Assembly (NCBI GenBank): GCA_040219255.1
Contig: JAVJSW010000060.1
Location: forward strand, 96,001 to 160,000
Direction of reading: 5' to 3'
DNA: 64,000 nt
Source: Sumerlaeia bacterium
Lineage (GTDB): Bacteria; Sumerlaeota; Sumerlaeia; SLMS01; JAHLLQ01
Made by a program: the position numbers and the translations under genes. The notes under the pieces were generated by a model that saw nothing but the letters and a program-made list of their open reading frames with translations, was not told where the DNA came from and ran no database searches. Positions 13,832 to 51,085 of this stretch are shown piece after piece; position 1 is the stretch's first letter, and each line of letters starts with the position of its first letter.

Positions 13832-13880
13832 CCCGCGCCAGTCACCCCCTTTGCGTTAGTATCAAACACGAGGAATCAGG

Positions 13881-21777: not shown

Positions 21778-21978
21778 CGCGCGGTCGCGTCCTCGGGAAG
21801 GCGGGAATTGCAGGCGCGAGGGTGCGCGGGCGAGGCGGGCGAGGTCAAGGAAACCCCGCCCTTTTTCATGGCCCGAAATCTGCTCTCCCGGGCAAATTGC
21901 GTTTGTACCGCACCATCGTTCCGGATTGAATGCTCGCGGAACAATGGACATCAAGGATGAGGACGATTGGAACGAGCT

Positions 21979-22614: not shown

Positions 22615-22635
22615 GGCGGCTGGGGTCTTTGGGAT

Positions 22636-22872
22636 TTCACCGCAGAGACGCGGAGGACGCAGAGAGGGTTCGGTTCATTTATTTTGAGTGGTGCTTTAGT
22701 GGGGGGATTGTTGAAGTTCCGGTGTCATTTGCGAGGTTTTGATCGAATCGGATCTCGGCATCGGTCCCAGAGATTTTTTATTTAGCCGAACTTAACGATT
22801 CTTGCGAGCGAACCGCCCTCGCCTGTAACCCCCTCAGTGAAACCACTGTCCTCTGAGACACTCTGTGGTTAA
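22636..22872. repeat. Empty inverted pair of 8-9-nt-periodic repeats (cgcagag/cacagag family)
   Basis: ttcaccgcagagacgcggaggacgcagag (22636-22664) faces cctctgagacactctgtggttaa (to 22872) across an AT-richer spacer. Confidence 0.65.
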
Positions 22873-22996
22873 CAACCCCCCCAGCGGCGCTTCGCGAGAT
22901 TGACGCTTGCGCGGCGCGGCGGACGTGGCCAACTGGGGCGATGTCGTGGCCTGGCAGGCGATGCCGGGCCGATTCTTCCGCTTCCCCAGAGAGATC

Positions 22997-24880
22997 ATGT
23001 CCGTCCGCCCCTCCCGAGCCCGCCAGCCCCAGACCGCTTCCTCCTCCCTAATAGCCGATTCAAACGATGGGAAAGGGTCCGGCGAGAAGCCCCGGCCGCG
23101 TTGGCGGACGAGGCTTGGCATGCTGCTGCCTCCCATCGGCGAACTGCGCGAACGCAAGGCGGCCTTTCTCTGGGCGCTCCTATCGGTGGTTCTGCTCCGG
23201 CTTTGCTGGGCGCCGGTCGAGTGGGGCGTGCTGGCGCTGGTGGCGCTGGTTCCGTTCCTGTGGGGCCTGCGAGGCATGTCGCCCCGGGCGGCCTTCTGGT
23301 ACGGCTGGGTATTCGGAGGCATCCACTTCTACACGATTCTGACGTGGCTCAATTCCGTGGCTCGGTTCGGCATTCTGGCGCCGGGCGGGTTTCCCCTGAT
23401 CTATGTGGGCGTGGTGCTGATGGCCTTCATTATGGGGCTGTACGTGGCGGTGTCGTCGGCGGGGATGGTCTGGTTCGGGCGCCGGCTCAATCCGTGGGGG
23501 GCGTTGGGGATGTCGGCGCTGCTGTGGGCGGGTCTGGAATGGCTCCGGTCCGCCGGCAGCCTCGGTTTCCCCTGGGGCTTGCTGGGCTATTCCGTGTACA
23601 CGGTGGAGCCATTGGCGGCGCTGGCGAGTCTGGGCGGTGTACCGCTGATTTCCTCGTTCCTGCTCCTCATCAACATCGAAGTCATGGAGGCCGTCGCAGC
23701 CACGCGGCGGCGCCAGTGGAGCCTGGATGTGGCCCTGCGGGTCGCCGCCGCGGCGGGGCTCTTGGTGGCCGCGCTGGCCTGGGGCTTTGGCGAGCCCCCC
23801 CAGCCCGCCAGCACGATGCGCGTCGCGGTGGTGCAGCCCAACATCCCGCAGGACGAAAAATTCGCCTCCTACTCGCCGGAGGAAGGCGTGGAGCGCCAAA
23901 TGGCCCTGCAGGAAGAGGTGACGCTGACCATTCTGGACATGCTGCGGGACCTCGAGCCCGGCGCCTACGATCTCGTCGTTCTGCCAGAGAGCGCCTTTCC
24001 CCAGCCCTGGTTCGATATCGAAATCCGCGAGTCCGCCCTCCAGCGCGAACTCCGCGCCATCGCCACCGAACTCGACGCCACGCTTCTCGTGGGGTCGGCG
24101 GACAACGTCTTCTACGACGTGGACAATCAGGAAGTGGAGGACTACCGCCAGGCTGTTCAGACGGGCCAGGAGTTGGCCCATGGCTACTACAACGCGGCGT
24201 ACTTCATCCGCCCCGGCGACTCCGAATTCCAGGGGTCGGCGGAATACCGCAAGATCCACCTGGTGCCCTTCGGCGAAACGATCCCCTTCGCCGATTCGTT
24301 CGACGCTCTCAGCAATCTGCTGCCCATCGGGGGCTTCCAGGCCGGGGCGCCGCGCCAGGCGGCGGTGTACATCGACGCGCGCGGAGGGGCCGGCGAGAGC
24401 GGGGAAGCGGAGGCTCTGCCGGAGCCGCCGAAGGTGCCGGTTCACGTCGCGCCGACGATCTGTTTCGAGGACTTTTTCCCGTACCTGCACTATCGGATGT
24501 CCAGGCGCGGAGCCGAGGTCTTCGTCAACATCACGAACGACGCGTGGTACGATCCGACGCTGGGGAGCCGGCTGCACTTCGCCCACGCCCGGATGCGGAG
24601 CGTGGAGGTGGCGCGGCCCATGATTCGCTGTGCCAACACGGGCGTTACCGCCATTGTGGGTGCGGACGGCGAAGTGCTTTCGGAATTGCCGCTTCGCGAG
24701 CGCGGCGTGCTCTCGGCGGAGGTGCCGCTGATGGGGCCCGAAGTGCAAACAGTTGCAACGCGATTCGGTTCCAACTGGGGGATTCTCGGATTCCTGCTCG
24801 GATTGGGCGGATGGATCGGACTGGCGCTGGCCGGGAAAAGTCGGAGTAAAAGGCTTGATCCTGGCCCCGGGACGCTCTAA
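22997..24880 (+). CDS. lnt: Apolipoprotein N-acyltransferase
   Basis: Multiple TMs, [51 protein letters not shown]. Confidence 0.95.
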
Positions 24881-24929
24881 GGCGGTTGGCTATGACAGGA
24901 TTACTTTTCTAACCAAAGGGGCATATGCC

Positions 24930-26891
24930 ATGACCGAAGCAGTGGTTTTCGACGATCTTCTCCACGAGAATCGAGAATTTCCTCCCTCCGACGAATTCCG
25001 GAAGAACGCCATCGTCAGTGATAAGTCCTTGTACGAGAAGGGCAAAGCGGACTTTGAAGGATATTGGGAAAGCGAAGCCCATGAGCTGGAATGGTTCGAG
25101 CCCTGGAATAAGGTCCTCAATTGGAACCCGCCCCACTGTGAATGGTTCACCGGCGGCAAAATCAACATCACCCACAACTGCATCGACCGCCACCTCAAGG
25201 GCCCGCGCCGCAACAAGGCCGCCCTCATCTGGGAAGGCGAGGATTTCGAAGTCAAAACCCTGACGTATCTGCAACTGCACCGCGAGGTCTGCAAGTTCGG
25301 AAACGCCATGAAAAATCATGGCGTCAGGAAAGGCGATCGTGTCGCTATCTACATGCCGATGATTCCGGAAGCCGCCATCGCCATGCTCGCCTGCGCCCGC
25401 ATCGGCGCCATCCACAGCGTGGTCTTCGGCGGGTTCTCCGCCGAATCCCTGTGCGACCGCATCCAGGACGCCCAGTGCAAGATGCTCATCACCGCCGATG
25501 GCGGTTGGCGCCGCGGCGGCATCGTCCAACTCAAATCCATGGCCGACAAGGCGCTGGACAAATGCCCCAGCATCGAAACCGTCGTCGTCGTCAAACGCCC
25601 CCATGGCGACCCCTTCCCCTGTCACATCCAGGAAGGCCGCGACGTCTGGTACCATCGCATCATGCAGGACGCCACCGCCGACTGCCCCGCCGAGCCGATG
25701 GACGCGGAAGATCCCCTCTTCATCCTCTACACCTCCGGCACCACCGGCAAACCCAAGGGCATCGTCCACACCTGCGGCGGCTACAGTGTCGGCACCTACT
25801 CGACGACCAAGTACGTCTTCGACCTGAAGGAAGATGACATTTACTGGTGCACGGCCGACGTGGGCTGGATCACCGGCCACAGCTACATCGTCTACGGCCC
25901 GCTGCAGTGCGGCGCCACCTGCCTGCTCTACGAAGGCGCCCCGAACTGGCCCGAAAACGACCGCTTCTGGGACATCTGCGAACGCCACGGCGTGACGGTG
26001 TTTTACACGGCGCCGACGGCGATTCGCGCCTTCATGAAATGGGGCCACCAACTGACCGAGAAATACGACCTCGGCGCCCTGCGCCTGCTCGGCTCCGTCG
26101 GCGAGCCCATCAATCCGGAAGCCTGGATGTGGTACCACAAGTGGATCGGCCGCGAGAAATGCCCCATCGTGGATACATGGTGGCAGACGGAAACGGGCAG
26201 CATCATGATTTCCACACTGCCCGGCGCCGACATCGCCCGGCCCGGCTCGGCGGGCTTCGCCATGCCCGGCATTCACGCGAAAATCCTCGCCGAGAGCGGC
26301 AAGGAAGTGGAAGCCGGCAGCGGCCTGCTGGCCATCACCAAACCCTGGCCGTCGATGCTCCGCACCATCTGGGGTGATGACGAGCGGTACGTGAACACCT
26401 ACTTCAGCAAGTGGGACAATTCGAACTACTTCCCCGGCGACGGCGCCAAGGTCGACGCCAAGGGCTACTTCACGGTCCTGGGCCGCGTCGACGACGTGCT
26501 CAACGTGTCCGGCCACCGCATCGGAACCGCGGAAATCGAGAGCGCCCTGGTGGAGCACGAAGCGACCGCCGAAGCCGCCGTCGTCGGCCGCAAGGACGAC
26601 CTGAAGGGCCAAGCCATCGTGGCCTTCGTGACCCTCAAGCAGCGCTTCCAACAGAGCGACGAATTGCGCAAGGAACTGCGCGAATTCGTGAAGGAAAAAA
26701 TCGGCGCCATCGCCCGGCCCGACGACCTCATCTTCAGCGCCGACCTGCCCAAAACGCGCTCGGGTAAGATCATGCGCCGTCTGCTCCGCGACATCGCCGA
26801 AGGCCGCGCCCTGGGCGACACCACCACCCTGGCCGATCCCTCCATCGTCCAGCAGCTCCGCGAAAGCTACGAAGAAAAATACGGCGACTGA
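24930..26891 (+). CDS. acs: Acetate--CoA ligase
   Basis: [43 protein letters not shown]. Confidence 0.97.
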
Positions 26892-26929
26892 GACACCCTT
26901 CCACCCAAACCGAACGACAGGAGTGCCTC

Positions 26930-27448
26930 GTGGCCTCGTCTTCCACTCAAGAGCATCGGCGAAGCGCCGAAAAGTTGGCCGCGATTCGCGTTGCCGTGCT
27001 GACCATCAGCGACACCCGCACCCCGGAGACGGACAAGAGCGGTGCGCTGATCCAGGAGCTTTTGAGGGACGAAGGTCACGAGGTCGTTTATTACGAAGTA
27101 CTGAGGGATGAACCCTTAGATATCAAAGAACGGGTTTTTTTCCTCTGCCAGCGGCCCGATGTGCAGGCCGTCTTGCTGAACGGGGGCACGGGAATTTCGC
27201 CGCGGGACGGGACATTTGAAGCGCTGGAAAGCATCTTGCTGAAATCCCTGCGAGGTTTTGGTGAGTTGTTCCGGATGCTGTCTTGGGCGGAAGTTGGATC
27301 GGCGGCGATGTTGTCGAGAGCCACCGCTGGCATCTGCGGAACTGCGATCGTTTTCTCCATGCCCGGCTCCACGAACGCCGTCGGTCTGGCCATGCGTTCA
27401 CTGATTCTGCCGGAGTTGCGGCATCTGGTCTTCGAACTCACCAAGTAA
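26930..27448 (+). CDS. moaB: Molybdenum cofactor biosynthesis protein MoaB/MogA family
   Basis: VLTISDTR..DKSG, NGGTGISPRD, GFGELFR, AMLSRA, MPGS. Confidence 0.92.
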   Translation: MASSSTQEHRRSAEKLAAIRVAVLTISDTRTPETDKSGALIQELLRDEGHEVVYYEVLRDEPLDIKERVFFLCQRPDVQAVLLNGGTGISPRDGTFEALESILLKSLRGFGELFRMLSWAEVGSAAMLSRATAGICGTAIVFSMPGSTNAVGLAMRSLILPELRHLVFELTK

Positions 27449-27513
27449 CTCGAATGGCGCGCCCCCGCTCCGGGGCCACGCGCTCGCGAAAAATTCGAAG
27501 GCGGCTTGGTGAA

Positions 27514-28314
27514 ATGGCTACGCTCCTCAAATCCGGCGGGGTTTTTCTGCATATCCCGAAAACCGGCGGATCCTGGGTCCAGGAAGTTCTCAAGGAACTC
27601 GGCCTGGTGCGGTACAACATCGGTCGTGAGCATGAAGATATGCCATCGATCATGCACTTCCCCCTCGCCAACCCTTACGAGTACCGCCGCAAGTTGATCA
27701 GCCGCGGCCTTGGCTGGCACGGCGACGTGGTCAAGGGCTTCAAGTTCTGTTTCACCAGGAACCCCCTCACCTGGTACGAATCCTACTGGAAGTGGCGCGC
27801 CGGTCAGTGGCCCGAGGGTCCCGACTACTACACCGATTTTCCCGTGGGAACGATCGCCGAGACGGGCGACGACAATTTCAACACGTTCGTCCGCAACGTG
27901 ATCGAAAGGTTTCCCGGCTACGTCACGGCCCTCTATGGGCGCTATGCCGTCCCGGGCCTGATCGACTTCATCGGCAAGCAGGAGACGCTGACCGACGACC
28001 TCATCGCGGTCCTCACTCATCTCAACGAGAACTTCGACGAGGACCGAATCCGCAATTGGCCGAGGGTCAACGCGTCGCAATCCAAGTTCGGCAAACCGGT
28101 CTGGAATCCTTCCGTCCGGGACTTGGCCTGCAAGGCGGAATACGCGGGAATCCTGCGCTACGGATATGAGGTCGATCATCTCGTGCCCACGGCCGTCATG
28201 GCCGAGGTCTTCGAACCCGTCGCCAGCCCCCGCCACGCCAAACTGCCCCAGAGCCGCGTGATCCGCAAACCGCTCCTGGGTGGAAATGGATATCAGGTTC
28301 CCGTCGGTTCCTGA
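27514..28314 (+). CDS. Sulfotransferase family 2-like protein, copy 1
   Basis: FLHIPKTGGSW (5'-PSB-like), FCFTRNPLTWYESYW (3'-PB-like), DFIGKQE. Confidence 0.72.
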   Translation: MATLLKSGGVFLHIPKTGGSWVQEVLKELGLVRYNIGREHEDMPSIMHFPLANPYEYRRKLISRGLGWHGDVVKGFKFCFTRNPLTWYESYWKWRAGQWPEGPDYYTDFPVGTIAETGDDNFNTFVRNVIERFPGYVTALYGRYAVPGLIDFIGKQETLTDDLIAVLTHLNENFDEDRIRNWPRVNASQSKFGKPVWNPSVRDLACKAEYAGILRYGYEVDHLVPTAVMAEVFEPVASPRHAKLPQSRVIRKPLLGGNGYQVPVGS

Positions 28315-28422
28315 AGCCGTCACTCTGCAGAGGATCGCCGCCTGCGGCACCTTCCGGAACCGAACGATGGTATTAAAGTTGAGACGTTGCATGCCTGCGA
28401 CGCGGGATCGATCCCGGCGACC

Positions 28423-28697
28423 GTGCTGAACGATGGAATGGGGACTTCCCGCCCCGTCCCGCCGTGCGAGGTATTGGAAAGCATCTTGCGATAGCGGGGA
28501 CAGGGTTTCGGTGAGTTCTGTCGAAGACTGTCCTGGGCTGGCATGGGTACCGCGGAAATGCTCTCAGCGGCAGCCGCCGGTGCTTGAGCGGAGGGCCTTC
28601 GGTTCGACGCTTGACTCTACCTTTGCAGCCGGTTCGGTGCTCCGTTCGCCGATCTTGCACGAGAGCGCGACACCTCGATTTCGAACTCACCGAGGAG
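28423..28697 (+). pseudogene. Decayed duplicate of the moaB 3' half
   Basis: Shares tggaaagcatcttgc (27225/28475) and ttcgaactcacc (27431/28680) with moaB at a ~1250-nt offset; in-frame TAG at 28492-28494. Confidence 0.8.
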
Positions 28698-28756
28698 CCC
28701 AATGGTTCGGGGCGATTTCGACTCCGCGCAAATTCCCTCAAAGGCGCCTTGGTGCT

Positions 28757-29542
28757 ATGGCATTCCTTCTCAAATCCGGTGGAGTCTTTCTTCACATCCC
28801 CAAGACCGGCGGGATGTGGGTCCAGAAAGTCCTGAAAGAACTTGGACTTGTGCGATACGCCTTCGGTCGCGAGCACGAAGACATGCCAGGAATCGTCAAC
28901 TTCCCCTCGGCCAATCCCTTCGAACACCGTCGCAAAATGGTGCGCCGGGGGATCGCCTGGCACGCCGACGTGCTCAATGGGTACAAATTTTGTTTCGTTC
29001 GCCACCCGCTGACTTGGTACGAGTCGTACTGGAAATGGCGCTCGGGCCAGTGGCACAAGGCCTCCAACTATTACACCGACTTTCCCGTCGGCATGATTCG
29101 CGACACCGGTCACGACGACTTCAATCAATTCGTCCGCGTTGTGAACGAGAAATACCCCGGCTACGTCACAGCCCTCTACGGCCGCTATGCGGTTCCGGGC
29201 CGCATCGATTTCATCGGCAAACAGGAATCGCTAACGGACGATCTGATCACCGTTCTCAACCATCTCAACGAAAACTTCGACGAGGACCGAATCCGGAACT
29301 GGCCGCGCGTCAACGCTTCGAAGTCCAAAGCGGGGAAGCCGGTCTGGGAATCGGAAGTCCGGGAATTGGCCAGCAAGACCGAGTACGCCGGAATCCTGCG
29401 ATACGGCTACGCGGTCGATGACTTGGTGCCCAACGCCACCATGGACGAGGTTCACGAACCGGCGGCGCCAAGCGGCGACCGCGTCGAAGCGCATGAGGAA
29501 GAGGCGTGCCGGCAACCCGCCTTCACGGCCAACGGTCACTGA
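28757..29542 (+). CDS. Sulfotransferase family 2-like protein, copy 2
   Basis: Close paralog of 27514-28314 (LLKSGGVFLHIPKTGG, PLTWYESYWKWR, PGYVTALYGRYAVPG, HLNENFDEDRIRNWPRVNAS). Confidence 0.72.
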   Translation: MAFLLKSGGVFLHIPKTGGMWVQKVLKELGLVRYAFGREHEDMPGIVNFPSANPFEHRRKMVRRGIAWHADVLNGYKFCFVRHPLTWYESYWKWRSGQWHKASNYYTDFPVGMIRDTGHDDFNQFVRVVNEKYPGYVTALYGRYAVPGRIDFIGKQESLTDDLITVLNHLNENFDEDRIRNWPRVNASKSKAGKPVWESEVRELASKTEYAGILRYGYAVDDLVPNATMDEVHEPAAPSGDRVEAHEEEACRQPAFTANGH

Positions 29543-29548
29543 TCGGGG

Positions 29549-36224: not shown

Positions 36225-36258
36225 GGGCGTTGGGAAAGGTGGAGGCTCGGAGCGAGCC

Positions 36259-36693: not shown

Positions 36694-36922
36694 GGCGAAA
36701 GGAAGCCTCCTCGAATACTTGGGCGCACAGTAGATGGGACGCGAGAGCGGGCGCAATCGTTTGGCCGCCGGCTCGGTTTTTTCCGTGGCCTGAGAAATCA
36801 GTAAGGGCAAAACCCAGGCCAACCGCGCGCATGCGAGTTGGCGCCCGCCAAGCCCCGGGCGCAACGCGTTTCGGGCGGGAGGCTCCGGAGAGCGGGAATC
36901 CCCTCTTCGTGCCTCCCCCTCA

Positions 36923-37657: not shown

Positions 37658-37687
37658 GGAAAGGGACGCTTTCTTATTGGGGAAAAA

Positions 37688-37715
37688 TCACCACAGAGTC
37701 ACAGAGGACACCGAG
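37688..37715. repeat. Left member of the inverted periodic repeat pair flanking the nuclease gene
   Basis: tcaccacagagtcacagaggacaccgag; contains the stop codon of ORF 37699-39093. Confidence 0.7.
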
Positions 37716-39093
37716 ATGTATTCTCAAGAACTATAGCTGCTCTGATGGCGTCAAAGTCTTTCGGTGAGAGGGTGCGCCTGTCCCATACAGGGTGCGCTTG
37801 ACCCGCTCCTACAATCCCTTCGCTGTCGAAAATCGAAATGCCGTTTCGATCCACAACCAGACAAATACACGCATCTTTCAATGAAAACTTGTTTCTGTCC
37901 GTCTGCGTTTCGTTGTAGGTGAAGGCGTCCGAAAGAGTATACTTAGCCACTTGGCCGGGGAGGTCGCCTTCGAGAGCCACATCCAGCTTGGCCTCGACGG
38001 GAAACCACGTCCCACCGATCATGACAGCATAATCCGATCGACCCTGCGATATGTCATCTTTCCAACAGGTAACCTCCCGATAGGTTTTGCTTCCTGGATC
38101 TTTGATTTCGTTGAGAAGATGGTCAATAAAAATGTCCCGGACCTGGCTTTCGAAGAGGCAACGGCGCGTGACGTTGCGGCCTTTATCGAGCCAGTTTTCC
38201 ACAGTGATGTCGCGAATCCCTTCTGTGTGCCCCACCGCGTTGGCCAAGTAATCTGGAGCTTCCGGGTTATGCAGTAGGATCAAATCGCGGAGGGTATTGA
38301 AGGTTGGACCGTCAACTAATTCGGGCTGACGCGCATCCGTTCGAAGGCGATGTTTGATGGCGTCGTGGGGTATTGGCTTCTCGAAAAGATAAAAATCCGT
38401 GAATTCGGAGTAGTATGGGCTATGCCAATGGTTCTCGGAGCCTTCCCTGGAAATGTACTCAATGCTTCCCTCAAGACGCGCACAGGCAAAAATGCAACCA
38501 CCGACTTGTTCAAGGCAATGAAGCTCGTTGTCGATGACAATAGCGAAATCGGTAGCGAAACACCCGTAGTCTTCACCCACTGATTTGACGAGCCGCTTTG
38601 CCTTCTGCTTGTTCTTCATGGCGAGCCGAAAAAAGAATATGTCTCCTGCCAAGGCCCAACGTGGTGCTGTCCAGTTCCCCGTCTTGGAACCCTGAAGCTG
38701 GCGCCGCACGGTGGTTCCATCGTCTTCCAATTCAACCATCGCCCCACGAAGCAACCATTGCGTGTTTGTTTCCCAGTATCCGTCTTCCCGCACCTTTGAT
38801 TCAACCATCTCATAAAACGTATCGGCGGTTGATGGAAAACCGGATTGGACCATGATTCCCCGCGTGGGGATGGGGGTCTTGGTCCATGCTTCAGGAATCT
38901 CCCCACTGCCCATGGGAGGATGGGAGGGCGCTGGCCCCAAACTCAGACTTCGATATTCCGCTCTCGATTCATAAAGGACGCGGAAATCCTCGAGGACTTG
39001 TCTCTTTGCTTCCGGACTCAAATCATCCGGCAAACTCGCCAAAAAGGCATCCGCCTCCTCAGTGGGAAGCTTGGGAATTTCCTGCTTGTCCAT
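37699..39093 (-). CDS. Putative restriction-like nuclease: EVE/PUA-like domain + C-terminal PD-(D/E)xK domain
   Basis: WTAPRWALAGDIFFF..GCIFACARL..W..PIP (PUA-like pattern); FESQVRD..YRE..GRSDYAV..PVEAKL..QVAKY (nuclease pattern); visibly lower GC. Confidence 0.6.
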   Translation of the reverse strand: MDKQEIPKLPTEEADAFLASLPDDLSPEAKRQVLEDFRVLYESRAEYRSLSLGPAPSHPPMGSGEIPEAWTKTPIPTRGIMVQSGFPSTADTFYEMVESKVREDGYWETNTQWLLRGAMVELEDDGTTVRRQLQGSKTGNWTAPRWALAGDIFFFRLAMKNKQKAKRLVKSVGEDYGCFATDFAIVIDNELHCLEQVGGCIFACARLEGSIEYISREGSENHWHSPYYSEFTDFYLFEKPIPHDAIKHRLRTDARQPELVDGPTFNTLRDLILLHNPEAPDYLANAVGHTEGIRDITVENWLDKGRNVTRRCLFESQVRDIFIDHLLNEIKDPGSKTYREVTCWKDDISQGRSDYAVMIGGTWFPVEAKLDVALEGDLPGQVAKYTLSDAFTYNETQTDRNKFSLKDACICLVVDRNGISIFDSEGIVGAGQAHPVWDRRTLSPKDFDAIRAAIVLENTSRCPL

Positions 39094-39119
39094 AGTACAA
39101 GCTCATCCGAAATAAATTC

Positions 39120-39148
39120 CTCAGCGCTCTCCGCGCCTCAGCGGTGAA
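39120..39148. repeat. Right member of the inverted periodic repeat pair
   Basis: Reverse complement ttcaccgctgaggcgcggagagcgctgag closely matches 22636-22664 and 43116-43144. Confidence 0.8.
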
Positions 39149-39154
39149 TTCCCA

Positions 39155-40453: not shown

Positions 40454-40673
40454 GGCAGTCGGGGGCACTTTCTCGGGCGGGGGTTGCAAAGTCGCCAAGA
40501 GGGAGGCGCAAGGAAGCGCCGGGCGCAAGGAGGGTTTGCTGCGGAGGCGCGATGGCGGTTCTTAGGTCAAAGCTCGGGATTGCGCGCGGGCGGGGGGATG
40601 GTTTAGGCCTTTTCGTATCAGGCGCGCGCCCCTGTGCCCGCGCCCATTTCGCCCAGAGGTTGAGCACCCGCTT

Positions 40674-41378: not shown

Positions 41379-41450
41379 GCCCACACTTTCCAAAGCCTCA
41401 CAAACCAAGCTGTCCCTCCGTGACGTCTCAACAGTCAGAAAGAACGCCCC

Positions 41451-42899: not shown

Positions 42900-43115
42900 T
42901 GCCGCTGCCGCTGGCGTGGCGGCGGGCGGCCGGGGGCATTTGGGGGCGTGGGTGAGATTCGGCATGGTGGCGGGGCTCCTGCGGCTTGGGGTCTGACAGG
43001 AGGGAGCCTCTCACAGGCCCGGTCGTTTGTCCCCTCATGTGGAGCTTGTGGGACAAGAAAGACAAAATACACTTGTGGGCCTTAGCGGAGGAAGGCGGTG
43101 TGCGGGGGATGGAAA

Positions 43116-43144
43116 TTCACCGCAGAGGCGCGGAGGGCGCAGAG
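43116..43144. repeat. Periodic cgcagag-family repeat unit
   Basis: ttcaccgcagaggcgcggagggcgcagag. Confidence 0.75.
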
Positions 43145-43165
43145 GGGGTGGCGCCCCCCCCGCAT

Positions 43166-43290
43166 GTAGTTCCGCCTTCAGGCGGAAAGCCGGCCCGCGC
43201 CGTGGTTGGATTATAGAGAGAAACGCCACGGGGCAAGGACCCCGCGGCGTTTTTCTCGGACCAGTTCCGCCTAAAGGCGGGACTACGAAC
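43166..43290. repeat. REPIN-like inverted pair of GTAG REPs
   Basis: gtagttccgccttcaggcgg (43166-43185) ... ccgcctaaaggcgggactac (43267-43286). Confidence 0.75.
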
Positions 43291-43318
43291 ACATAGAAGG
43301 GGGCGCGTTGCAGGCCCC

Positions 43319-44515
43319 TCAATCCTCGGCCTTGCCGCCGCGGGCCATCAGGACCATGCGGGGCCAGAAGATTGCCAGCGTTTCCACCAAGTCCTTCTGG
43401 GCCTCCATCACTTCCTCGATGCGCTTATAGGCCTGCGGGGCTTCGTCCACGCCGGCGGCGAGGAGTTCGATGCCACGCTCGGCCAGGTAGGCGCGCATCG
43501 CCGAACCGGTGATGGTCTGGCGGGCGGCTTTACGGCTGTGGGCCCGGCCGGCGCCGTGGGCCGCCGAGCACAGCGACGCCGCGTTGCCACGGCCCCGCAC
43601 CACAAAGCCCGGGTCGCCCATGGAGCCGGGGATGACGCCCAGCACGCCCTCGCCCGCGGGGGTGGCGCCCTTGCGGTGAACGATCACTTCCTCGCCGTTG
43701 TGGATTTCCTTCCAGGCGAAGTTGTGATGGTTCTCGATCTGCAAGAGCGGCTTCAACCCCGCCGACTTCAGCACCTCGCGGTGGATGCAGTCGTGGTTGG
43801 CGGAGGCGTACTCGCCGGCCAGGTTCATGGACGCCCAATACTCCTGGCCCGCCGGGCTGTGCATCGACAGCCACGCTAGGTTGCGCGCCTGCGGAGGCAG
43901 CTCGGTCAGGTCCTTGGCCAGCCGCGAGTAGGTCTGGGCGATGTTCGCGCCCAGACCCCGCGAGCCCGAATGGCTCATCAGGGCGACGTACTCGCCGGGT
44001 TCGACGCCCAGGTCCGGGCTTTTGACCTCGAGCAGACCCCACTCGGCGAAGTGGTTCCCCGAGCCGGAGGTCCCGAGCTGGGCCCAGGCCTTGTCCTTCA
44101 GGTAGCCGATATGCGGCGGCACGGCGTCCCACGCCGGCGAGTCCATCACCGGGTGGCTGCGCTTCTCGTTCTTGCGGAACTCGCCGCCGACGCCAAAGCA
44201 GGTCTCGCGCGAAAGGGCGTTCTTCAGCTTGCCCTTGAAGCCCTCGTAGCGATCCGATGGCATGTCGGTGATCGAGAGCTTCATTCGGCAGGCGATATCG
44301 ACGCCCACGGCGTAGGGAATCACCGCGTCGCGCACGGCCAGCACGCCGCCGATGGGCAAGCCATAGCCCACGTGGCCGTCGGGCATCTGGGCCGCCGCCA
44401 CGGAAATCGGCAGGCGGCGCGCCACCTCGATCTGGTCCAGGGCACCCTGGTCAATCTGGTCCTGCCCCCACACCGCCAGCGGCACCGGGGCATCCATCAA
44501 TTTGAAAGCAGACAT
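43319..44515 (-). CDS. rtcB: RNA ligase RtcB family
   Basis: MPDGHVGYGLPIGG, GVDIAC, GTSGSGNHF, HSGSRG, NHHN, HRKGAT, HGAGR, DEAPQAYK. Confidence 0.95.
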   Translation of the reverse strand: MSAFKLMDAPVPLAVWGQDQIDQGALDQIEVARRLPISVAAAQMPDGHVGYGLPIGGVLAVRDAVIPYAVGVDIACRMKLSITDMPSDRYEGFKGKLKNALSRETCFGVGGEFRKNEKRSHPVMDSPAWDAVPPHIGYLKDKAWAQLGTSGSGNHFAEWGLLEVKSPDLGVEPGEYVALMSHSGSRGLGANIAQTYSRLAKDLTELPPQARNLAWLSMHSPAGQEYWASMNLAGEYASANHDCIHREVLKSAGLKPLLQIENHHNFAWKEIHNGEEVIVHRKGATPAGEGVLGVIPGSMGDPGFVVRGRGNAASLCSAAHGAGRAHSRKAARQTITGSAMRAYLAERGIELLAAGVDEAPQAYKRIEEVMEAQKDLVETLAIFWPRMVLMARGGKAED

Positions 44516-44550
44516 GATCGTCCTTCCTCATTTCGAAAACGGGAGAAAGT

Positions 44551-44650
44551 TCACGATGAACCGCACGCAAGAACCGGGCGCCTTGAGCGATCTCGCTCAG
44601 GCATCGGCGCATGCGGAATGATCGGCTGACGGGCGTTCAGGCCCAAGCCA
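44551..44650 (-). promoter_or_regulatory. Structured leader RNA between the uORF and rtcB
   Basis: Minus strand hairpins tgatggc-ttgggcctgaacgccc-gtca and ccgca..gcctgagcga-ga-tcgctcaaggc..tgcgg. Confidence 0.5.
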
Positions 44651-44686
44651 TCAGTTGTCGAAGTGTCTGGAAAAAAGAGCGGACAT
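44651..44686 (-). CDS. Putative leader peptide MSALFSRHFDN upstream of rtcB
   Basis: GAGGAGG Shine-Dalgarno (44694-44700) 7 nt before ATG 44686; 11 codons then TGA. Confidence 0.6.
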   Translation of the reverse strand: MSALFSRHFDN

Positions 44687-44875
44687 GTTGGGTCCTCCTC
44701 ATGCCGGGCAGCAGAGGGGCGCGAGCATGCACAGCGGGCGGCGGCGGGCAAGCTGAATCTTTGCGTCATTTTGGCGATTACGGCGAAACGCCATCGAACT
44801 CATTGACGGAGGCGCCCCCTTGCCTCACAAATGCCCACTCCCTACGACCGAATTCCGAGCGCGAGTCCCCCGACC

Positions 44876-46444
44876 ATGAGCCTCCTGGAAGATCAGCCCG
44901 CCACTAACGTTCGCTTCGTGTCCGACGAGGTGCTGGTGCGGGACAATCCGACGCATATCTGGATCGAGCCCACGAACCGCTGCAACACGCGCTGCAAGCA
45001 CTGCGGCCACTTCTACGATGTCTTTGGCAGAGACATGGACATCGAGCTGTACGAGAAGATCAAGGCGGCGGTGCTCGACGATGTGGAGCGTATCGAGCTG
45101 ATCGGCTATGGCGAACCGCTGATGGCGAAGAACTTCGAGCGTATGTTCGACGATTGCCTGGAGCGCGGCATCCGCATCTATACCACCAGCAACGGCATTC
45201 TGCTGCGCAAGGACGACCTGGTGGCCAAGCTGGTGCGCAGCGATGTGTACCTGTGCCTTTCCATCGACGGCGCGCGTCAGGAAACGTTCGAGCATATCCG
45301 GCCCTATGTGCGGTGGCACAAGATGCTGGAAACGCTCGAGTGCATCAAACGCAACGCCGACGCCGCCGGGCCTGAGACCAAGTTCCGCTTTCGCTTCAAC
45401 TATGTCGCCATGCGCCACAGCATCGGCGATTTGCCGGATCTGGTGCGCCTCGCGCATAAATACGGCGCTGGCGAGGTTTTCGTCCTGCCCCTGGGCGGCG
45501 AGGAGCAATTCGCGGAGGTCAATGGCGAGTCCCTGCGAGATGCGCCGGAGTTGGTCTCGCCGGCGTTCCTGGAAGCGCTGGAACTGGCCGCCGAATACGA
45601 CATCCACCTGACTGTGCCGGAGTCCTTCCGGCCGCTGATCCTGGAAGGCGCCGAGCGCGGCCAGGGCCTGCGCGGGAAAGCCGCCAAAGCGGCCCGCAGA
45701 GCCCGGCTGGCCAGTCTCTATGTGAAGCGCAACGGCTTCTCCGCCGCCTGGCAGCGCATCGTCAAGAAGCCCACCGCCGGCGTCCGCGCCAAGGCCGGCG
45801 TCACCTACTGCAACATGCCATGGAAGGACAGCTACTTCGCCTCCGACGGCAAGATCTATCCTTGCTGCATCATGAACGAAACGCTCGGCGACATGAAGAC
45901 CCAGTCGTGGGAAGAGATCTGGAACGGCGCGGCTTACCGGAACCTGCGGCGCACCGTGCACAGTTGGAACCCGACGGCGGTGTGCCGCTTCTGTCCCCTG
46001 CCGACGGGCATTAACGGCGGCGACGACAAGCAATACGCCCGCTATTTCTCACGGTTCCGCGCCGAGCCGGTGGAGCTCGACGCGGATGGCGTGGCCTTTG
46101 GCGGCGGTTTTCACGGTTTGGAACGCCACGAGGACGGTTCGGCCAGCCATGTCTGGATGGGGAAAACGGGGACGATGACGGTGCCCGCGCGGCGCGGCGC
46201 CAAGTTCCTCCGCCTGACCATCATTACGCGCTCGCCCGGACCGGACCTGAATGCGGGGATCGCCAATGTCAACGGCGGCGAGGACGAGCCCTTCGACAAC
46301 TCCTGCGAGCACCTGCACTTCCCCGTCGAGGGCATCGCGGGCGGGAAAATCGAACTGGCCCTGGAAATGGAGCGGACCCACCACGTCGAGGGCGATTGCC
46401 GGGAGTTGGCGCTGGTGATTCGCGGGGTGGATTATTTGTTTTGA
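44876..46444 (+). CDS. Radical SAM / SPASM-domain protein with an extra C-terminal domain
   Basis: CNTRCKHC, GYGEP, TSNG, SIDG; CNMPW..IYPCC..IWNG..CRFC. Confidence 0.88.
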   Translation: MSLLEDQPATNVRFVSDEVLVRDNPTHIWIEPTNRCNTRCKHCGHFYDVFGRDMDIELYEKIKAAVLDDVERIELIGYGEPLMAKNFERMFDDCLERGIRIYTTSNGILLRKDDLVAKLVRSDVYLCLSIDGARQETFEHIRPYVRWHKMLETLECIKRNADAAGPETKFRFRFNYVAMRHSIGDLPDLVRLAHKYGAGEVFVLPLGGEEQFAEVNGESLRDAPELVSPAFLEALELAAEYDIHLTVPESFRPLILEGAERGQGLRGKAAKAARRARLASLYVKRNGFSAAWQRIVKKPTAGVRAKAGVTYCNMPWKDSYFASDGKIYPCCIMNETLGDMKTQSWEEIWNGAAYRNLRRTVHSWNPTAVCRFCPLPTGINGGDDKQYARYFSRFRAEPVELDADGVAFGGGFHGLERHEDGSASHVWMGKTGTMTVPARRGAKFLRLTIITRSPGPDLNAGIANVNGGEDEPFDNSCEHLHFPVEGIAGGKIELALEMERTHHVEGDCRELALVIRGVDYLF

Positions 46445-46469
46445 GAGATAAAGTGAAATACTTTTCTGT

Positions 46470-46615
46470 GTAGCACGGGCGTCCCGCCCGTGACCAGCGG
46501 CGATTTTTATAGACCTGAAACCCCTTGGGGTCCGGTCGATATGAGTCCGCTCTTGGAGATTGGTTGTTGACGTGGGAGAAGACTGGCTGGTCACAGGCTC
46601 AGACGCCCGTGTTAC
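46470..46615. repeat. REPIN-like inverted pair of GTAG REPs
   Basis: gtagcacgggcgtcccgcccgtgacc (46470-46495) and degenerate inverted ggtcacaggctcagacgcccgtgttac (46589-46615). Confidence 0.75.
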
Positions 46616-46619
46616 CTTT

Positions 46620-48905
46620 TTAGCGATCCCGTTCTTTCTTGGTTATCTCTATGGGAATGAACTTCGAAACCGGCGTCCGGCTCCCCTTGGCGAAGCTCCC
46701 CGCCGGGACCAGCACGTTCGTTTCCGGGAAGTAGGCCGCCGCGCAGCCCTTCGGGATGTCGTATACCACGACGCGAAAACCCCCGGCCTCGCGCGTTTTG
46801 CCGTCCTTGGCGAAGCTGCGCAGGGTCACCACGTCGCCATCCGGGAGCCCCCGCTCGGCCGCGTCCTCGGCGTTCACGAACACCACCATCCGCGTGCCGT
46901 AGATGCCGCGATAGCGGTCATCGTTGCCGTAGATCGTCGTGTTGTACTGATCGTGCGAGCGAATCGTCATCAGCCGCAATTGCCCGTCCGGCATCGTCAG
47001 GTCCGGGATGGGCTCGAAGACGAAACGCGCCCGGCCGCCTGAAACGCGCCATTCGCGTTCGCGGGCGGAGTTGCGCAGATGAAACCCGCCAGGGGCGTCG
47101 ATCTTTTCATTGTAGTCAGCGAAGGCCGGAAGGACTTCGGCGATTTTGTCGCGGATCAGGCCATAGTTGCGCCGCATCGCGTCCCACGGCATCGCCGGGT
47201 TGGGGTCGAGGGTGGCCTCCGCCATGCCCGCAACGATGGCCGGTTCGGAGAGCAGGTGTTCCGACGCCGGGCGGTTTTTTCCGACCGAGGCGTGTACCAT
47301 GCTCATCGAGTCCTCGACCGTGACGCGCTGCGGTTCGCCGTTCTGCAGGTCGATTTCCGTGCGGCCTAAGCACGGCAGAATCAACGCCTCGCGTCCATGG
47401 ACCAGATGGCCGCGGTTGAGTTTGGTGCTGACCTGAACGGTCAGCTCGCATCGCCGCAGCGCCGCCCAGGTATGATCGCGGTCGGGCGTGGCGGCGGCGA
47501 AATTGCCGCCCATGGCGATGAAGACCTTCGCGCGGCCCTCGGCCATGGCTTCGATGGCCGCCAACGTGTCCAGGCCGTGGTGCTGCGGGGGCGCGAAGTG
47601 GAAGACTTCACCGAGGCGCTTCAGGAACTCGGGCTTCGGGCGCTCGACGATGCCCACCGTGCGGTCGCCCTGGACGTTGCTGTGGCCGCGCACGGGGCAC
47701 GCGCCCGCCCCCGGGCGGCCGATGTTGCCGCGCATCAGTAGCACATTCATCACGGCCTGAATCGTGGCCACGGCGTGCTCGTGCTGGGTCAGGCCCATGG
47801 CCCAGCAGATGATCGAGCGCTCGGCCCGGGCGTAAATCTCAGCCGTTTCGACAATCGCCGCGCGCGAGAGCCCGGACTGCGCCTCGATCTCGGCCCAGTC
47901 CAGGGCGTGGATGGCGGCGGCGAAGGCCTCGAAATCCTGGGTGTGATCGGCGATAAATTCCGCGTCCAAGACCCCACCTTCGCCCTCGTCCTCCATTTCC
48001 AGAAGTGCCTTGGCCAAGCCATGAAACAGCGCCAAGTCCCCGCCGATCAGGGGCTGGAGGTAGTGGTTGGCGATGGCGGTGCCCTTGCCGGCCAGGACCT
48101 CGAACGGCTGCTTGGGATGGGCGAAGGAAATCAGCCCGCGCTCCTTCAGCGGATTGATCGCCACGATACGCGCGCCTCGGCGCGCGGCCTTCTGCAACTC
48201 CGTCAGCATCCGCGGGTGGTTCGTGCCGGGGTTCTGGCCGACCACAAAGATCGCGTCGGCCAGTTCGAAATCGTCCAGAGTCACCGTGCCCTTGCCGATG
48301 CCGATGCTCGCGGTCAGGGCGGTGCCGCTCGATTCGTGGCACATGTTGCTGCAATCGGGGAAGTTATTGGTGCCAAAGGCCCGGCCAAGGAGCTGATAGA
48401 GAAAGGCCGCTTCGTTGCTGGTGCGGCCCGATGTGTAGAAAATCGCATCGTCGGGCGTGTCCAGCCCCCGCAGTGTCTTGCCGATCAGGGCGAAGGCCGC
48501 CTCCCAAGTCACCGGTTGATAGCGATCCGTTTCGGCGTCGTAGCGCATCGGGTGGGTCAGGCGGCCTTGGTCCTCGAGCCAGTGGTCCGTCCGCGCCATC
48601 AGTTCCGCCACCGAATGGCGGGCGAAGAAATCCGGGTCGGCGCGGCGGCCGGTGGTTTCGGCGGCGATGGCTTTGGCGCCGTTCTCGCAGAATTCGAACG
48701 CGCCGCGGTCCGCCGGGTCCGGCCAGGCGCACCCGGGGCAGTCGAAGCCCCCATCCTGATTCACATCCCACAGCGACTTCCACGTGCGCGCCATCGCGCC
48801 CTGGTGCCAGGTGTGGCGCATCGTGTTGCGAATCGCGCCCAGTCCCCCCGCGGGGCCGGTGTAGGGCTCGACCTTGCCGCTGCTTATCTTCTGATCGTCC
48901 GCCAT
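46620..48905 (-). CDS. FdhF/YdeP-family molybdopterin oxidoreductase
   Basis: GFDCPGCAWPD, EFCENGAKA, YTSGRTSNEAAF, NNFPDCSNMCHE, RSHDQYNTTIYG. Confidence 0.93.
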   Translation of the reverse strand: MADDQKISSGKVEPYTGPAGGLGAIRNTMRHTWHQGAMARTWKSLWDVNQDGGFDCPGCAWPDPADRGAFEFCENGAKAIAAETTGRRADPDFFARHSVAELMARTDHWLEDQGRLTHPMRYDAETDRYQPVTWEAAFALIGKTLRGLDTPDDAIFYTSGRTSNEAAFLYQLLGRAFGTNNFPDCSNMCHESSGTALTASIGIGKGTVTLDDFELADAIFVVGQNPGTNHPRMLTELQKAARRGARIVAINPLKERGLISFAHPKQPFEVLAGKGTAIANHYLQPLIGGDLALFHGLAKALLEMEDEGEGGVLDAEFIADHTQDFEAFAAAIHALDWAEIEAQSGLSRAAIVETAEIYARAERSIICWAMGLTQHEHAVATIQAVMNVLLMRGNIGRPGAGACPVRGHSNVQGDRTVGIVERPKPEFLKRLGEVFHFAPPQHHGLDTLAAIEAMAEGRAKVFIAMGGNFAAATPDRDHTWAALRRCELTVQVSTKLNRGHLVHGREALILPCLGRTEIDLQNGEPQRVTVEDSMSMVHASVGKNRPASEHLLSEPAIVAGMAEATLDPNPAMPWDAMRRNYGLIRDKIAEVLPAFADYNEKIDAPGGFHLRNSAREREWRVSGGRARFVFEPIPDLTMPDGQLRLMTIRSHDQYNTTIYGNDDRYRGIYGTRMVVFVNAEDAAERGLPDGDVVTLRSFAKDGKTREAGGFRVVVYDIPKGCAAAYFPETNVLVPAGSFAKGSRTPVSKFIPIEITKKERDR

Positions 48906-48944
48906 CGCGCCGCTCCCGAGAGTCTTCGATGGACAGCTAAACCA

Positions 48945-49125
48945 GACAGGAGCAGAGAGGACAGAGGAATTCGCCACGGATGGGCACGGATAGGGGTTGG
49001 ATGTGTTTTTTTGCTTAAGACCTTCTTCGAGCGCCATTTCGTCGCTTGTTCATCGCTGCATCCGACTTCACTATCCGTGCCAATCCGTGGCGATTCTTCC
49101 CTCTGCGCAGCCTCCAACCTCCCTT
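48945..49125. repeat. Nested inverted repeats between divergent ydeP-like and fdhD genes
   Basis: tcgccacggatgggcacggata (48971-48992) vs tatccgtgccaatccgtggcga (49072-49093), one mismatch; outer gagagg/cctc-rich arms. Confidence 0.75.
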
Positions 49126-49142
49126 TTCTCAGTGGTTGACCC

Positions 49143-49967
49143 ATGCTAGAAAAAGCCCCCGCGACCCGCTTTCGCCTCGGTCGGCCCGAGGCGGTGATCG
49201 ACCGCCTGACGATGGAAGCGGCGCTGGAACTCGCGGTCAATGGCGAGCCTTTCACCGTGACGATGCGCACGCCGGGGGACGAGCGGTTGCTGGCCCGGGG
49301 GCTGCTGCATACCGAGGGCGTGGTGAGCGATCCTCGCGCCACGATCGCCTGGCGCGAGGAGCTTTACGACGGCACGCGCATCGTTCGCCGCATCGACGCC
49401 ACCGTCCCGCCGGGGGCGCTGGTCCTCGATTTCGCGGGCAAGCGTGCGCTGCTTTCCACCTCGTCCTGCGGGATTTGCGGCAAGCTCGACATCGCCGCCA
49501 CGGGCCTGGAGGGCTGTCCGGTGAAGCTGACCCATGGCGACCGCCTGGATGTGGCGCGGGTGCCGGAGATGATGCGGCGGCTGCGGGCCGAGCAGGAAGC
49601 GTTCGAGTTCACCGGCGGCAGCCACGCGGCGGCGCTCTTCACGCCGGGCGGAGAATTTCTGGCGCTTTTCGAGGACATCGGCCGCCACAACGCCGTGGAC
49701 AAAGCCGTCGGGTGGATGATCGAGCGCCGCGTCGCCCCCCGCGCCCGTGTCCTGGCGGTCAGCGGACGTGTCTCCTATGAAATCGTCGCCAAGGCCTACC
49801 GCGCCCAGATCCCTTTCCTCCTTGCGGTTTCGGCCCCTTCCGGCCTAGCTGTGCAGATGGCAAAGCAGTTCGGGATCACGCTGCTGGCTTTCTGTCGCGA
49901 CGACCGCGCGACGGCCTACAGCCACCCCGAGCATCTGATTTCAGAGGGATTGTCGGTGACGCCATGA
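49143..49967 (+). CDS. fdhD: Formate dehydrogenase accessory sulfurtransferase
   Basis: TMRTPG, SSCGICG, TGGSHAA, EDIGRHNAVDK, SGRVSYE, VSAPS. Confidence 0.94.
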   Translation: MLEKAPATRFRLGRPEAVIDRLTMEAALELAVNGEPFTVTMRTPGDERLLARGLLHTEGVVSDPRATIAWREELYDGTRIVRRIDATVPPGALVLDFAGKRALLSTSSCGICGKLDIAATGLEGCPVKLTHGDRLDVARVPEMMRRLRAEQEAFEFTGGSHAAALFTPGGEFLALFEDIGRHNAVDKAVGWMIERRVAPRARVLAVSGRVSYEIVAKAYRAQIPFLLAVSAPSGLAVQMAKQFGITLLAFCRDDRATAYSHPEHLISEGLSVTP

Positions 49968-50341
49968 AGCTTCGAATCCGGGGCAACAGCCTGCGCATGC
50001 GGCTGAGCCAGAGCGAGACGCAAGACTTGCTGACCCATGGGATGGTCGAGGAAAGCGTGCGATTCCCCGGCGGCATGGCCCTCGCCTACGCCATCGTGCT
50101 CGTCCGCCAGGGATCGCACGTCACGGCCGCCATGTCCGGCAGCCGCATCGAGGTTCGCCTGCCGGAATTCCTGGCCCGCGAATGGATCGAATCGGATCAG
50201 ACCGGCATCGAACGCGAGCTGGCGCTGGCCGATGGCGAATCCCTCAAACTGCTGATGGAAAAGGACTTCCGCTGCCTCCACCGCCGCAACGGCGAGGACG
50301 AGTCGAACAGCTTCCCGAACCCCGCCGACGAAAGCCAGTGA
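49964..50341 (+). CDS. Conserved hypothetical protein
   Basis: MKLRIRGNSLRMRL..LLMEKDFRCL..FPNP; ATGA-coupled to fdhD. Confidence 0.75.
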   Translation: MKLRIRGNSLRMRLSQSETQDLLTHGMVEESVRFPGGMALAYAIVLVRQGSHVTAAMSGSRIEVRLPEFLAREWIESDQTGIERELALADGESLKLLMEKDFRCLHRRNGEDESNSFPNPADESQ

Positions 50342-50946
50342 GCTTGGTCTGTGGGATTCTGGCCGGGGGGCAGTCTTCCCGCATGGGCCAGCCGAAAGAG
50401 GGACTGATCCTCCCCGATGGGCGCCCCCTCATGGCGTTCCTCTTCGATTTGCTCAAGCCCATCGTTTCCGAAGTCTACGTCGTCGGGGCCAGCCGAGGCT
50501 TCGAACCCGCCCAAGTCCCCGGCCTGCGCCACCTGCCCGACCGCGAACCGGGGCTCGGACCCATGGGCGGATTGCGGACGCTGCTGGAAAGCGGCACCGC
50601 CACCCGCTATCTGCTCGTCACCTGCGATCAACCGCGCCTGACGCGGGGGCTTCTGGATGTCCTGATCCAGGAAAGCCCGCCGGATCGCCCGGCCTTCCTG
50701 CAAACCCAAAGCGGCCAAAGCCTCGCGCCCTTCCCCTCGCTGTGGCCCGAGGCAACCCTCGCCGCAGTGCGCGACGCCATGGAGCGGGGCGAGCGCTCGC
50801 CGCGGCGGCTGCTGCGGGAGCTCAACGCCGTGGCCTGCGTGGCGCCTGTTGGCGCGGAGTTGCTGGTGCAAAGCGTGAACACGCCGGGGGAATGGGAGGT
50901 GTATTTAACGCAAAGGGGCAAAGAGGCCAAGGCGCAAAGGGTGTGA
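50338..50946 (+). CDS. mobA: Molybdenum cofactor guanylyltransferase
   Basis: GILAGGQSSRMGQPK, GPMGG, TCDQP, SVNTP; GTG start overlapping the previous stop. Confidence 0.88.
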   Translation: MSLVCGILAGGQSSRMGQPKEGLILPDGRPLMAFLFDLLKPIVSEVYVVGASRGFEPAQVPGLRHLPDREPGLGPMGGLRTLLESGTATRYLLVTCDQPRLTRGLLDVLIQESPPDRPAFLQTQSGQSLAPFPSLWPEATLAAVRDAMERGERSPRRLLRELNAVACVAPVGAELLVQSVNTPGEWEVYLTQRGKEAKAQRV

Positions 50947-51085
50947 AATCAGGGATGCAGGTTGGGTTCTGGAGCGATGAGCAACCTGAGGATTTCCAGA
51001 AAAATAAATTACAAAAATCTCTACGAATCCACTCCAATTCCCCGCCAACCACCCCCTTTGCCCCTTATGCACCTTTGCGTTAAAT
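50903..51085. repeat. Empty inverted pair of periodic repeats (cgcaaag variant)
   Basis: atttaacgcaaaggggcaaagaggccaagg vs cctttgccccttatgcacctttgcgttaaat; 14 terminal nt perfectly complementary; arms overlap the mobA C-terminus and the mqnC stop. Confidence 0.75.

Follow-up and report, generated by a model that had tools for sequence, protein, structure and literature searches.

Repeat arms of phased words in a Sumerlaeia bacterium probably mark the ends of small mobile elements associated with GxxExxY nuclease genes

In the present study, we analysed a stretch of 64,000 nucleotides (nt) from the genome of a Sumerlaeia bacterium (assembly GCA_040219255.1, contig JAVJSW010000060.1, positions 96,001 to 160,000 of the forward strand; hereafter, the window), in which arrays of short repeated words, referred to below as arms, stand at the boundaries of genes such as folE, purB, fdhD and mqnC, mostly as facing pairs. 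An earlier note on this DNA, made from the letters of the window, had viewed the arms as borders of cassette-like units that capture conflict genes and shuttle them into fixed intergenic slots. By following the arms through the whole genome and into related genomes, we find that they are probably the two ends of hairpin-forming small mobile elements, the full-length form of which is a cassette with a GxxExxY gene, the putative mobiliser, whereas the pairs in the window are derivatives resembling miniature inverted-repeat transposable elements (MITEs).

Results

Arms and elements in the window

Each arm consists of a short head (TTCACC, ATCACC, TTAACG, TTAGCC or TTAACC) followed by 3-4 copies of a 6-7-nt word at a spacing of 8-10 nt. 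The arms are one-stranded, purine-rich word arrays and not palindromes (self-complementarity was not formally scored), and fall into six types according to the word:

Type A: GCNGAG
Type B: CACAGAG
Type C: CACGGAG
Type D: GCAAAG
Type E: CACAGAT/CGCGGAT
Type F: a four-word form

Six profile models, one for each word type, were built and run against the whole genome, a draft assembly of 5.35 Mb in 83 contigs (GC content 0.636; 92% complete), with the reversed genome serving as the control. In the window, arms were recovered at all but one of the places where the earlier note had put them, namely, as pairs at 22636/22872, 37688/39148, 48971/49093 and 50903/51085 and as a solo unit at 43116. The features are listed below with the expectation values (E) of the arm matches; aa and ORF stand for amino acids and open reading frame, respectively.

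12165..12185, + strand: marginal D-like match, E 0.81, not accepted as an arm
21967-22614: folE (PF01227)
22613..22891, + strand: gene-less asymmetric element of the X..F class, 1 nt past the folE stop
22633-22670, + strand: A-type arm of the folE-side element, E 1e-8
22832-22872, - strand: F-type arm of the folE-side element, E 4.8e-10
Adjoining the next arm: RDD gene (PF06271)
37685..37719, + strand: B-type arm (CACAGAG words), E 9.5e-8, 27 nt from the RDD gene start
37699..39093, - strand: 464-aa ORF (P0001), PD-(D/E)XK-type nuclease-like, low GC, between facing B and A arms
39114..39151, - strand: A-type arm facing the arm at 37685, E 1.3e-8, 3 nt from the purB stop codon
Adjoining the previous arm: purB (PF00206 and PF10397)
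42998..43076, + strand: copy of a 78-nt dispersed repeat, H
43113..43145, + strand: solo A-type arm between cysS and rtcB, E 9.3e-8, part of an H-plus-arm composite
48938..48967, + strand: outer left arm of a nested element (AACC head, CAGAG-like words), recognised by eye only
48971..48993, + strand: inner left arm (CACGGAT words, E-like), model E 0.093
49071..49093, - strand: inner right arm of the nested element, with a 77-nt spacer to the inner left arm
49097..49139, - strand: outer right arm of the nested element, recognised by eye only, ending 3 nt before the fdhD start
49143-49967: fdhD (PF02634)
50901..50943, + strand: D-type arm (GCAAAG words), E 4.5e-10
51053..51085, - strand: D-type arm facing the arm at 50901, E 1.2e-5

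The folE-side element has an interior of 161 nt, which is AT-richer and unique in the genome, and is delimited by outer inverted termini of 13 nt (22613-22625/22879-22891; 85% complementary); no target duplication is visible around 22613..22891. In the nested element, the inner arms (48971-48993/49071-49093) are 96% complementary over 23 nt, and the outer arms of 48938-49139 were missed by the arm models at E<=1. Nearly the whole divergent gap of 48906-49142, between a molybdopterin oxidoreductase gene (likely start ~48905) and fdhD, is occupied by this element, and both promoters therefore lie either inside it or elsewhere. One low-depth contig from public DNA runs (three runs, one study) spans 48852-49139, with the nested element present; the contigs of these runs yielded no usable junctions across elements. 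The D-type pair is 82% complementary over 28 nt (50903-50930/51058-51085). Some of the arms extend into coding sequences and supply gene ends, as had been read from the window: the final 14 codons of mobA fall within the arm at 50901..50943, the stop codon of mqnC (PF19288 and PF04055) sits in the head of the arm at 51053..51085, and, by translation, the arm at 37685..37719 holds the last 6 codons and the stop of the 464-aa ORF.

Genome-wide census of the arms

Each of the arm models yielded 25-224 matches at E<=1 in the genome, compared with 0-4 on the reversed genome. The merged models define 388 arms at E<=0.1 (422 at E<=1), of which 8 are located within the window. The arms mostly face each other, with 129 of the 134 adjacent +/- arm pairs being within 500 base pairs (bp) and mostly 30-300 bp apart, versus only 4 of the 106 adjacent -/+ (back-to-back) pairs; 258 of the 388 arms belong to facing pairs. 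The pairing of arm types is equally non-random (A-F, 26 pairs; E-E, 22; B-F, 18; C-F, 13; A-A, 9; C-C, 8; B-B, 7). Repetition is restricted to the arms, and no interior of a window element has a second copy in the genome. The spacers between facing arms have a median length of 119 nt and a GC content of 0.485, versus 0.595 in 1172 arm-free intergenic regions. The facing orientation and the AT-richer spacers noticed earlier in the window are confirmed by these counts. In predicted folds, arm-arm pairing of at least 15 bp is found in 113 of 127 elements and in 4 of 127 after flipping one arm.

In several metagenome loci from other organisms (L085, L086, L088 and L089), similar arms are often arranged back to back with 7-22 nt between them, which suggests insertion adjoining existing copies.

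GxxExxY nuclease genes are packaged between arms

The genome contains five matches to PF13366, four of which score 122-153 bits on TIGR04256. Each of these four GxxExxY genes is precisely enclosed by two facing arms of one type (C-C, E-E, A-A and D-D, respectively); the fifth is diverged and lacks arms. In all four arm-enclosed genes, the ATG falls within or immediately after word three of the 5' arm, and one of the words, containing GGAG, is placed at ribosome-site distance. The full-length form thus uses its 5' arm for translation initiation, with the arm providing both the ribosome-binding GGAG and the ATG of the GxxExxY gene, the product of which is 124-137 aa long.

The association extends beyond this genome. 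A GxxExxY gene is present in 60 of the 73 genomes of the same taxonomic class, and among the 31 GxxExxY loci surveyed in the class, a phased triple word was detected on at least one side in 25, on both sides in 16 and as the same word on both sides in 14 (shuffled-flank controls: 53/620, 0/620 and 0/620, respectively). The nuclease of this family that had been suggested as a possible partner of the repeats is hence found between arms in four of five cases here and next to phased words in most of the class loci. The words vary among related loci (CACGAAG, CACCAAG, GACAGGAT and others), and the closest relatives of the E-type nuclease gene mostly accompany words ending in GAT.

The GxxExxY (PF13366) family is very large, with at least 7997 clusters at 90% identity (E<=1e-10). 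The protein carries invariant G25, E28 and Y31 along with a nuclease triad of D68, E78 and K80, and its structure is predicted with a mean predicted local distance difference test score (pLDDT) of 94.7. Searches of the PDB by sequence and profile with this nuclease and with the 464-aa family returned nothing at E<=0.001, and a fold search with the nuclease model matched no solved structure at E<=0.001; the weak fold matches are to members of the PD-(D/E)XK superfamily, including Cas4 (E 0.013), lambda exonuclease and archaeal Hjc (template modelling score ~0.46). In the available text of a survey (PMC3424549), the function of PF13366 is listed as 'Unknown'. In the literature searched on GxxExxY, PDDEXK_3, TIGR04256/PF13366 and miniature inverted repeats of Planctomycetes, supplementary files excepted, neither the arms nor a role for the protein was found described. 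Given that GxxExxY genes are packaged between arms, the empty pairs of the window are therefore probably gene-less, MITE-like copies, and the earlier view that the arms border cassette-like mobile units is supported.

Evidence of transposition

Real transposition is evident from a gene-less 330-bp A..F family, which comprises 12 copies, most of them 81-90% identical to each other (one member is far diverged, with ~70% identity in a portion of the sequence). Direct repeats that match at 8 or more of 9 nt abut the termini in 7 of the 12 copies and are exact in 3 of these, as opposed to 2 of 132 mismatched controls. Among all X..F pairs, exact 9-mers are present in 7 of 62, with 5 at one offset (controls, 8/614). 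Thus, the asymmetric gene-less X..F form has transposed, leaving 9-bp target duplications. Of 11 folE loci in the nearest genomes, 10 contain no arm and the remaining one has a marginal match (E 0.47), and the element positions at the folE and purB loci are not common to the related genomes. The closest named matches to the CysS protein carry the labels Poribacteria (65% identity) and Sumerlaeota (48-57%), which does not decide the affiliation.

Target duplications of 9 bp and terminal inverted sequences, as seen in the X..F class, would also be in line with MITEs of a conventional insertion sequence (IS) family of the DDE type, with an unseen transposase recognising the word ends and the GxxExxY gene being a passenger, such as a homing or addiction module. 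Indeed, a DDE_Tnp_1 transposase gene is located at the end of a contig, and a 6.4-kb contig carries tandem A and D arms immediately followed downstream by an IS481-family transposase gene (C5:4997-6262; 223.9 bits, cut-off 224); furthermore, repeats are frequently lacking from draft assemblies such as this one. However, the stretch inspected beside the DDE_Tnp_1 gene shows no arms, and no transposase gene was found between facing arms in this (incomplete) assembly, in which the sole facing pair 0.5-3 kb apart encloses the 464-aa ORF. A metagenome scan with the F-arm pattern recovered 5 loci, again with no transposase between the arms, and a 580-nt spacer among them contains no ORF of at least 60 aa. 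Conversely, it is the nuclease gene rather than a transposase that recurs between the arms across the class. We regard an unseen conventional transposase with the nuclease as a passenger as the main rival to mobilisation by the nuclease and as a genuine, albeit lesser, possibility.

Genomic setting of the arm pairs

The settings were tabulated for the 127 arm pairs with genes called on both sides. The flanking genes show no preference in orientation (39 --, 32 ++, 28 +- and 28 -+), and the median distance from the pair is 21 nt to a gene 3' end versus 86 nt to a 5' end. The element occupies a median of 63% of the intergenic gap. In 30 of the 37 co-directional settings, X..F elements run along the transcription of the flanking genes (X->F; two-sided binomial ~2e-4). 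Nested insertion, with one element in the loop of another, is represented by two clear quartets in the genome, C-E-E-C and F-E-E-F. Collectively, insertions favour intergenic DNA close to gene 3' ends as well as the loops within existing elements.

The strong predicted stems, the bias in the direction of transcription, the large share of the intergenic gap that is filled and the presence of one element throughout a divergent promoter region might alternatively point to sites that serve the host and are not currently mobile, e.g., RNase III stems, mRNA stabilisers, insulators or protein-binding sites. Nevertheless, the target duplications and the multi-copy family show transposition, and the positions at folE and purB differ from those in related genomes. 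Furthermore, a sigma-70 and intrinsic-terminator scan of 48850-51200, which includes two elements, found none of either, and the window gave 0 matches to Rfam 15 at the gathering score. A host function as the primary explanation is accordingly unlikely, and as a secondary effect it would be compatible with mobile elements. Intrinsic terminators and low-complexity repeats were likewise considered and rejected: there are 0 terminator-like sites in 48850-51200, and 28 of the 127 pairs are located between divergent genes.

'Loaded' pairs and the gene-capture proposal

The pair at 37688/39148 encloses a lower-GC nuclease-like gene, as had been described: a GC content of 0.51-0.55 is confined precisely to the stretch enclosed by the two arms, compared with 0.63-0.70 outside. 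The 464-aa ORF has no family match in Pfam, NCBIfam or PADLOC and is single-copy in the genome; its 55 homologues, at ~30% identity, are all unnamed or labelled hypothetical and share a D...E-A-K nuclease motif, in which D354, E367 and K369 are invariant. Apart from GxxExxY genes, it is the only gene of known size class with bracketing arms in the genome. The abrupt boundaries of the low-GC block would suit the integron-like system envisaged in the earlier note, in which repeats guide the capture and exchange of conflict genes at fixed intergenic sites, and so would two further observations, i.e., the insertion of elements into the loops of other elements (including 48938-49139) and a second, F/C facing pair (C54:21943-22476; locus L084:222-635, minus strand), the 456-nt spacer of which encloses a 137-aa ORF without a Pfam match. 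This ORF could represent another type of cargo, or it could be spurious.

Several lines of evidence argue against such a system. Inverted arms are absent from the nine of the 55 homologous loci of the 464-aa gene that were inspected (Mycobacterium, Tepidisphaeraceae, Chloroflexota, Pyrinomonadales and others), where the best flank-flank inverted match does not exceed 9 nt, and the two arms of the 464-aa gene differ in word type. Solo arms 0.5-3 kb apart, in any orientation, were encountered 10 times and face each other only once, at the 464-aa ORF, which is no more than expected by chance. Of the six facing pairs with 300-2000-nt spacers, four enclose nothing other than the element's own GxxExxY nuclease gene, the remaining two being those of the 464-aa and the 137-aa ORFs. 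The second loaded pair proposed for the window, at 12168/13859 around a GTPase-TM island, did not hold up: the left match has an E of 0.81 and the right one (13847-13859) an E of 250, and the inverted score of 11 is within the random range (mean 9.3; 95th percentile 13). Finally, no integron integrase, attC core site or cassette array was found, the integrase comparison covering the multicopy recombinase. The capture and shuttling of conflict genes is thus quite improbable as the function of the arms, and the 464-aa gene, while a possible true cargo, most likely reflects the one-time arrival of foreign DNA within or next to an element and not the work of a system dedicated to capture.

As to the island itself, a 285-aa ORF with a low coding score (12974-13831, - strand) gives weak P-loop/defence-ATPase matches (PADLOC mad8/mad3, E ~8e-4; PtuA, 5e-3). 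It adjoins a 179-aa ORF of no family and is not bounded by repeats.

Recombinases and other repeats

The statement that no recombinase is present holds for the window only and does not extend to the remainder of the genome, which encodes, besides the GxxExxY nucleases and DDE transposases, a multicopy Xer-like tyrosine recombinase and two Y1 transposase matches. Neither of the two Y1_Tnp (PF01797) matches has arms within 1.5 kb. The copies of the tyrosine recombinase gene discussed below are as follows:

C47:3050-4345: full-length copy, no arms
C40:36779-37346, C10:18342-18924, C68:309661-310469 and C68:337195-337799: 5'-truncated copies
C61:26203-26523 and C34 near 4878-5426: further 5'-truncated copies

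Six copies of this gene are at least 70% identical, and at least 5 truncated copies begin directly behind an arm or behind an H repeat plus an arm, with at least 3 different breakpoints, which raises the question of whether the recombinase uses the arms as recombination sites. However, the arm-adjoining copies are 5'-truncated and the one full-length copy is without arms, a pattern that looks more like arms disrupting the gene; only a handful of the ~400 arms are involved, and the recombinase misses all curated cut-offs, scoring 66.4 bits against the TIGR02249 integron-integrase cut-off of 265. A role of this enzyme in arm recombination is therefore highly unlikely, and the integron-like character suggested for the system is not borne out.

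The 78-nt repeat H has 55 copies in the genome (80-92% identity), contains a GTCCCC...GGGAC hairpin and does not match any Rfam family at the gathering score. A same-strand arm is found within 120 nt downstream in 21 of the 55 copies, and H often precedes a solo arm. Near the solo arm of the window, GTAG-headed palindromes (TTCCGCC..GGCGGAA) resembling repetitive extragenic palindromes (REPs) are present at 43160-43190 and 43285-43312 and recur elsewhere in the genome. Together with the two Y1_Tnp matches, these may represent a separate system of REPs and REP-associated Y1 transposases (RAYTs) alongside the arms.

Discussion

A probable nuclease-bearing mobile element with gene-less derivatives

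We consider it probable that the arms are the two ends of hairpin-forming small mobile elements, with the GxxExxY cassette as the full-length form. Under this model, the resident nucleases, one per word type, would recognise the phased words, and each would mobilise its own cassette as well as the empty copies. The stems may render insertions within transcripts tolerable, and the pairs in the window would be gene-less derivatives, with insertions between genes, near 3' ends and inside the loops of existing elements. Overall, the elements look like a selfish element without earlier description and not like a capture system for host defence genes. A farther-reaching version, in which GxxExxY proteins constitute a new class of mobile-element enzymes, specified by words and producing a 9-bp staggered cut, with the loops taking up foreign genes, the 464-aa gene among them, at low frequency, appears unlikely.

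A number of considerations weigh against mobilisation by the nuclease. To our knowledge, strand-transfer activity is not known for a 125-aa PD-(D/E)XK nuclease, and a 9-bp duplication is a typical outcome of some DDE transposase families. The duplications are clear for the asymmetric form: symmetric pairs have exact 9-mers in 2 of 51 cases versus 4 of 493 controls, without a clear target duplication, and around 16 gene-bearing cassettes of related genomes, target duplications are not above the control. For the B and F types, this genome contains no resident nuclease gene, and a search of the empty interiors for remnants of the nuclease gene found none. The match between words and nucleases could be explained by co-inheritance alone. 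Arms within a pair are not more similar to each other than to same-type arms of other pairs (the observed value was reached in 299 of 500 permutations), and there is therefore no compensatory evidence for selection on the stem itself. Moreover, the nearest genomes belong to other genera and have lost the synteny around purB, and the gene positions around the arm pairs rest on our own rough gene caller.

Comparison with known systems

The arms are distinct from REPs, ordinary IS ends and attC sites, in agreement with what had been concluded from the window. The closest parallels in overall organisation can be drawn with several known systems. In REPIN/RAYT systems, as presented in the available parts of the sources (PMC3116915, PMC3337134 and bioRxiv 10.1101/2021.07.10.451892), doublets of REPs are combined with a REP-associated Y1 transposase. 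The elements described here similarly consist of intergenic inverted pairs of short repeats with a spacer, hundreds of which are gene-less and few of which contain a small enzyme gene flanked by the same repeats. Nevertheless, a single REP is a palindrome, whereas the arms are purine-rich word arrays; RAYTs are Y1 (HUH) transposases, whereas the arms enclose a PD-(D/E)XK GxxExxY nuclease; and the present elements further differ in showing 9-bp target duplications and in having several word types, four of which (A, C, D and E) each come with their own nuclease.

With MITEs, the elements share a multi-copy family (330 bp) with inverted termini and 9-bp duplications, intergenic location, nested insertion and the lack of coding capacity. 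Unlike in MITEs, the ends are phased words, most interiors are unique with repetition confined to the arms, the gene-bearing form encodes a small nuclease, and the incomplete assembly yielded no element that combines such ends with a cognate transposase.

Intervening sequences of 23S rRNA with an S23p ORF, e.g., in Coxiella burnetii (available text of PMC4990558), offer another parallel as selfish long-stem inserts that enclose an optional small ORF and are tolerable within a transcript. In contrast, the inserts described here are located between protein-coding genes and not in rRNA, and their ORF encodes a nuclease; PF05635 (S23p) is absent from this genome.

Integron cassettes resemble the elements in that imperfect inverted repeats with structure-forming potential border variable DNA. 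However, the best IntI-type score falls far below the cut-off (the multicopy recombinase only; no genome-wide TIGR02249 search was made), the elements are dispersed, with the arms bracketing their own interior and not forming a co-oriented array of attC-ending cassettes, and the cargo is almost exclusively the element's own nuclease.

Significance

The elements matter for genome annotation, as they border on or extend into gene ends, provide stop codons and occupy promoter regions, and they are predicted to put long stems into transcripts. The association with word-repeat arms, several hundred gene-less copies and target duplications ties GxxExxY proteins to a defined DNA partner, which renders their role directly testable.

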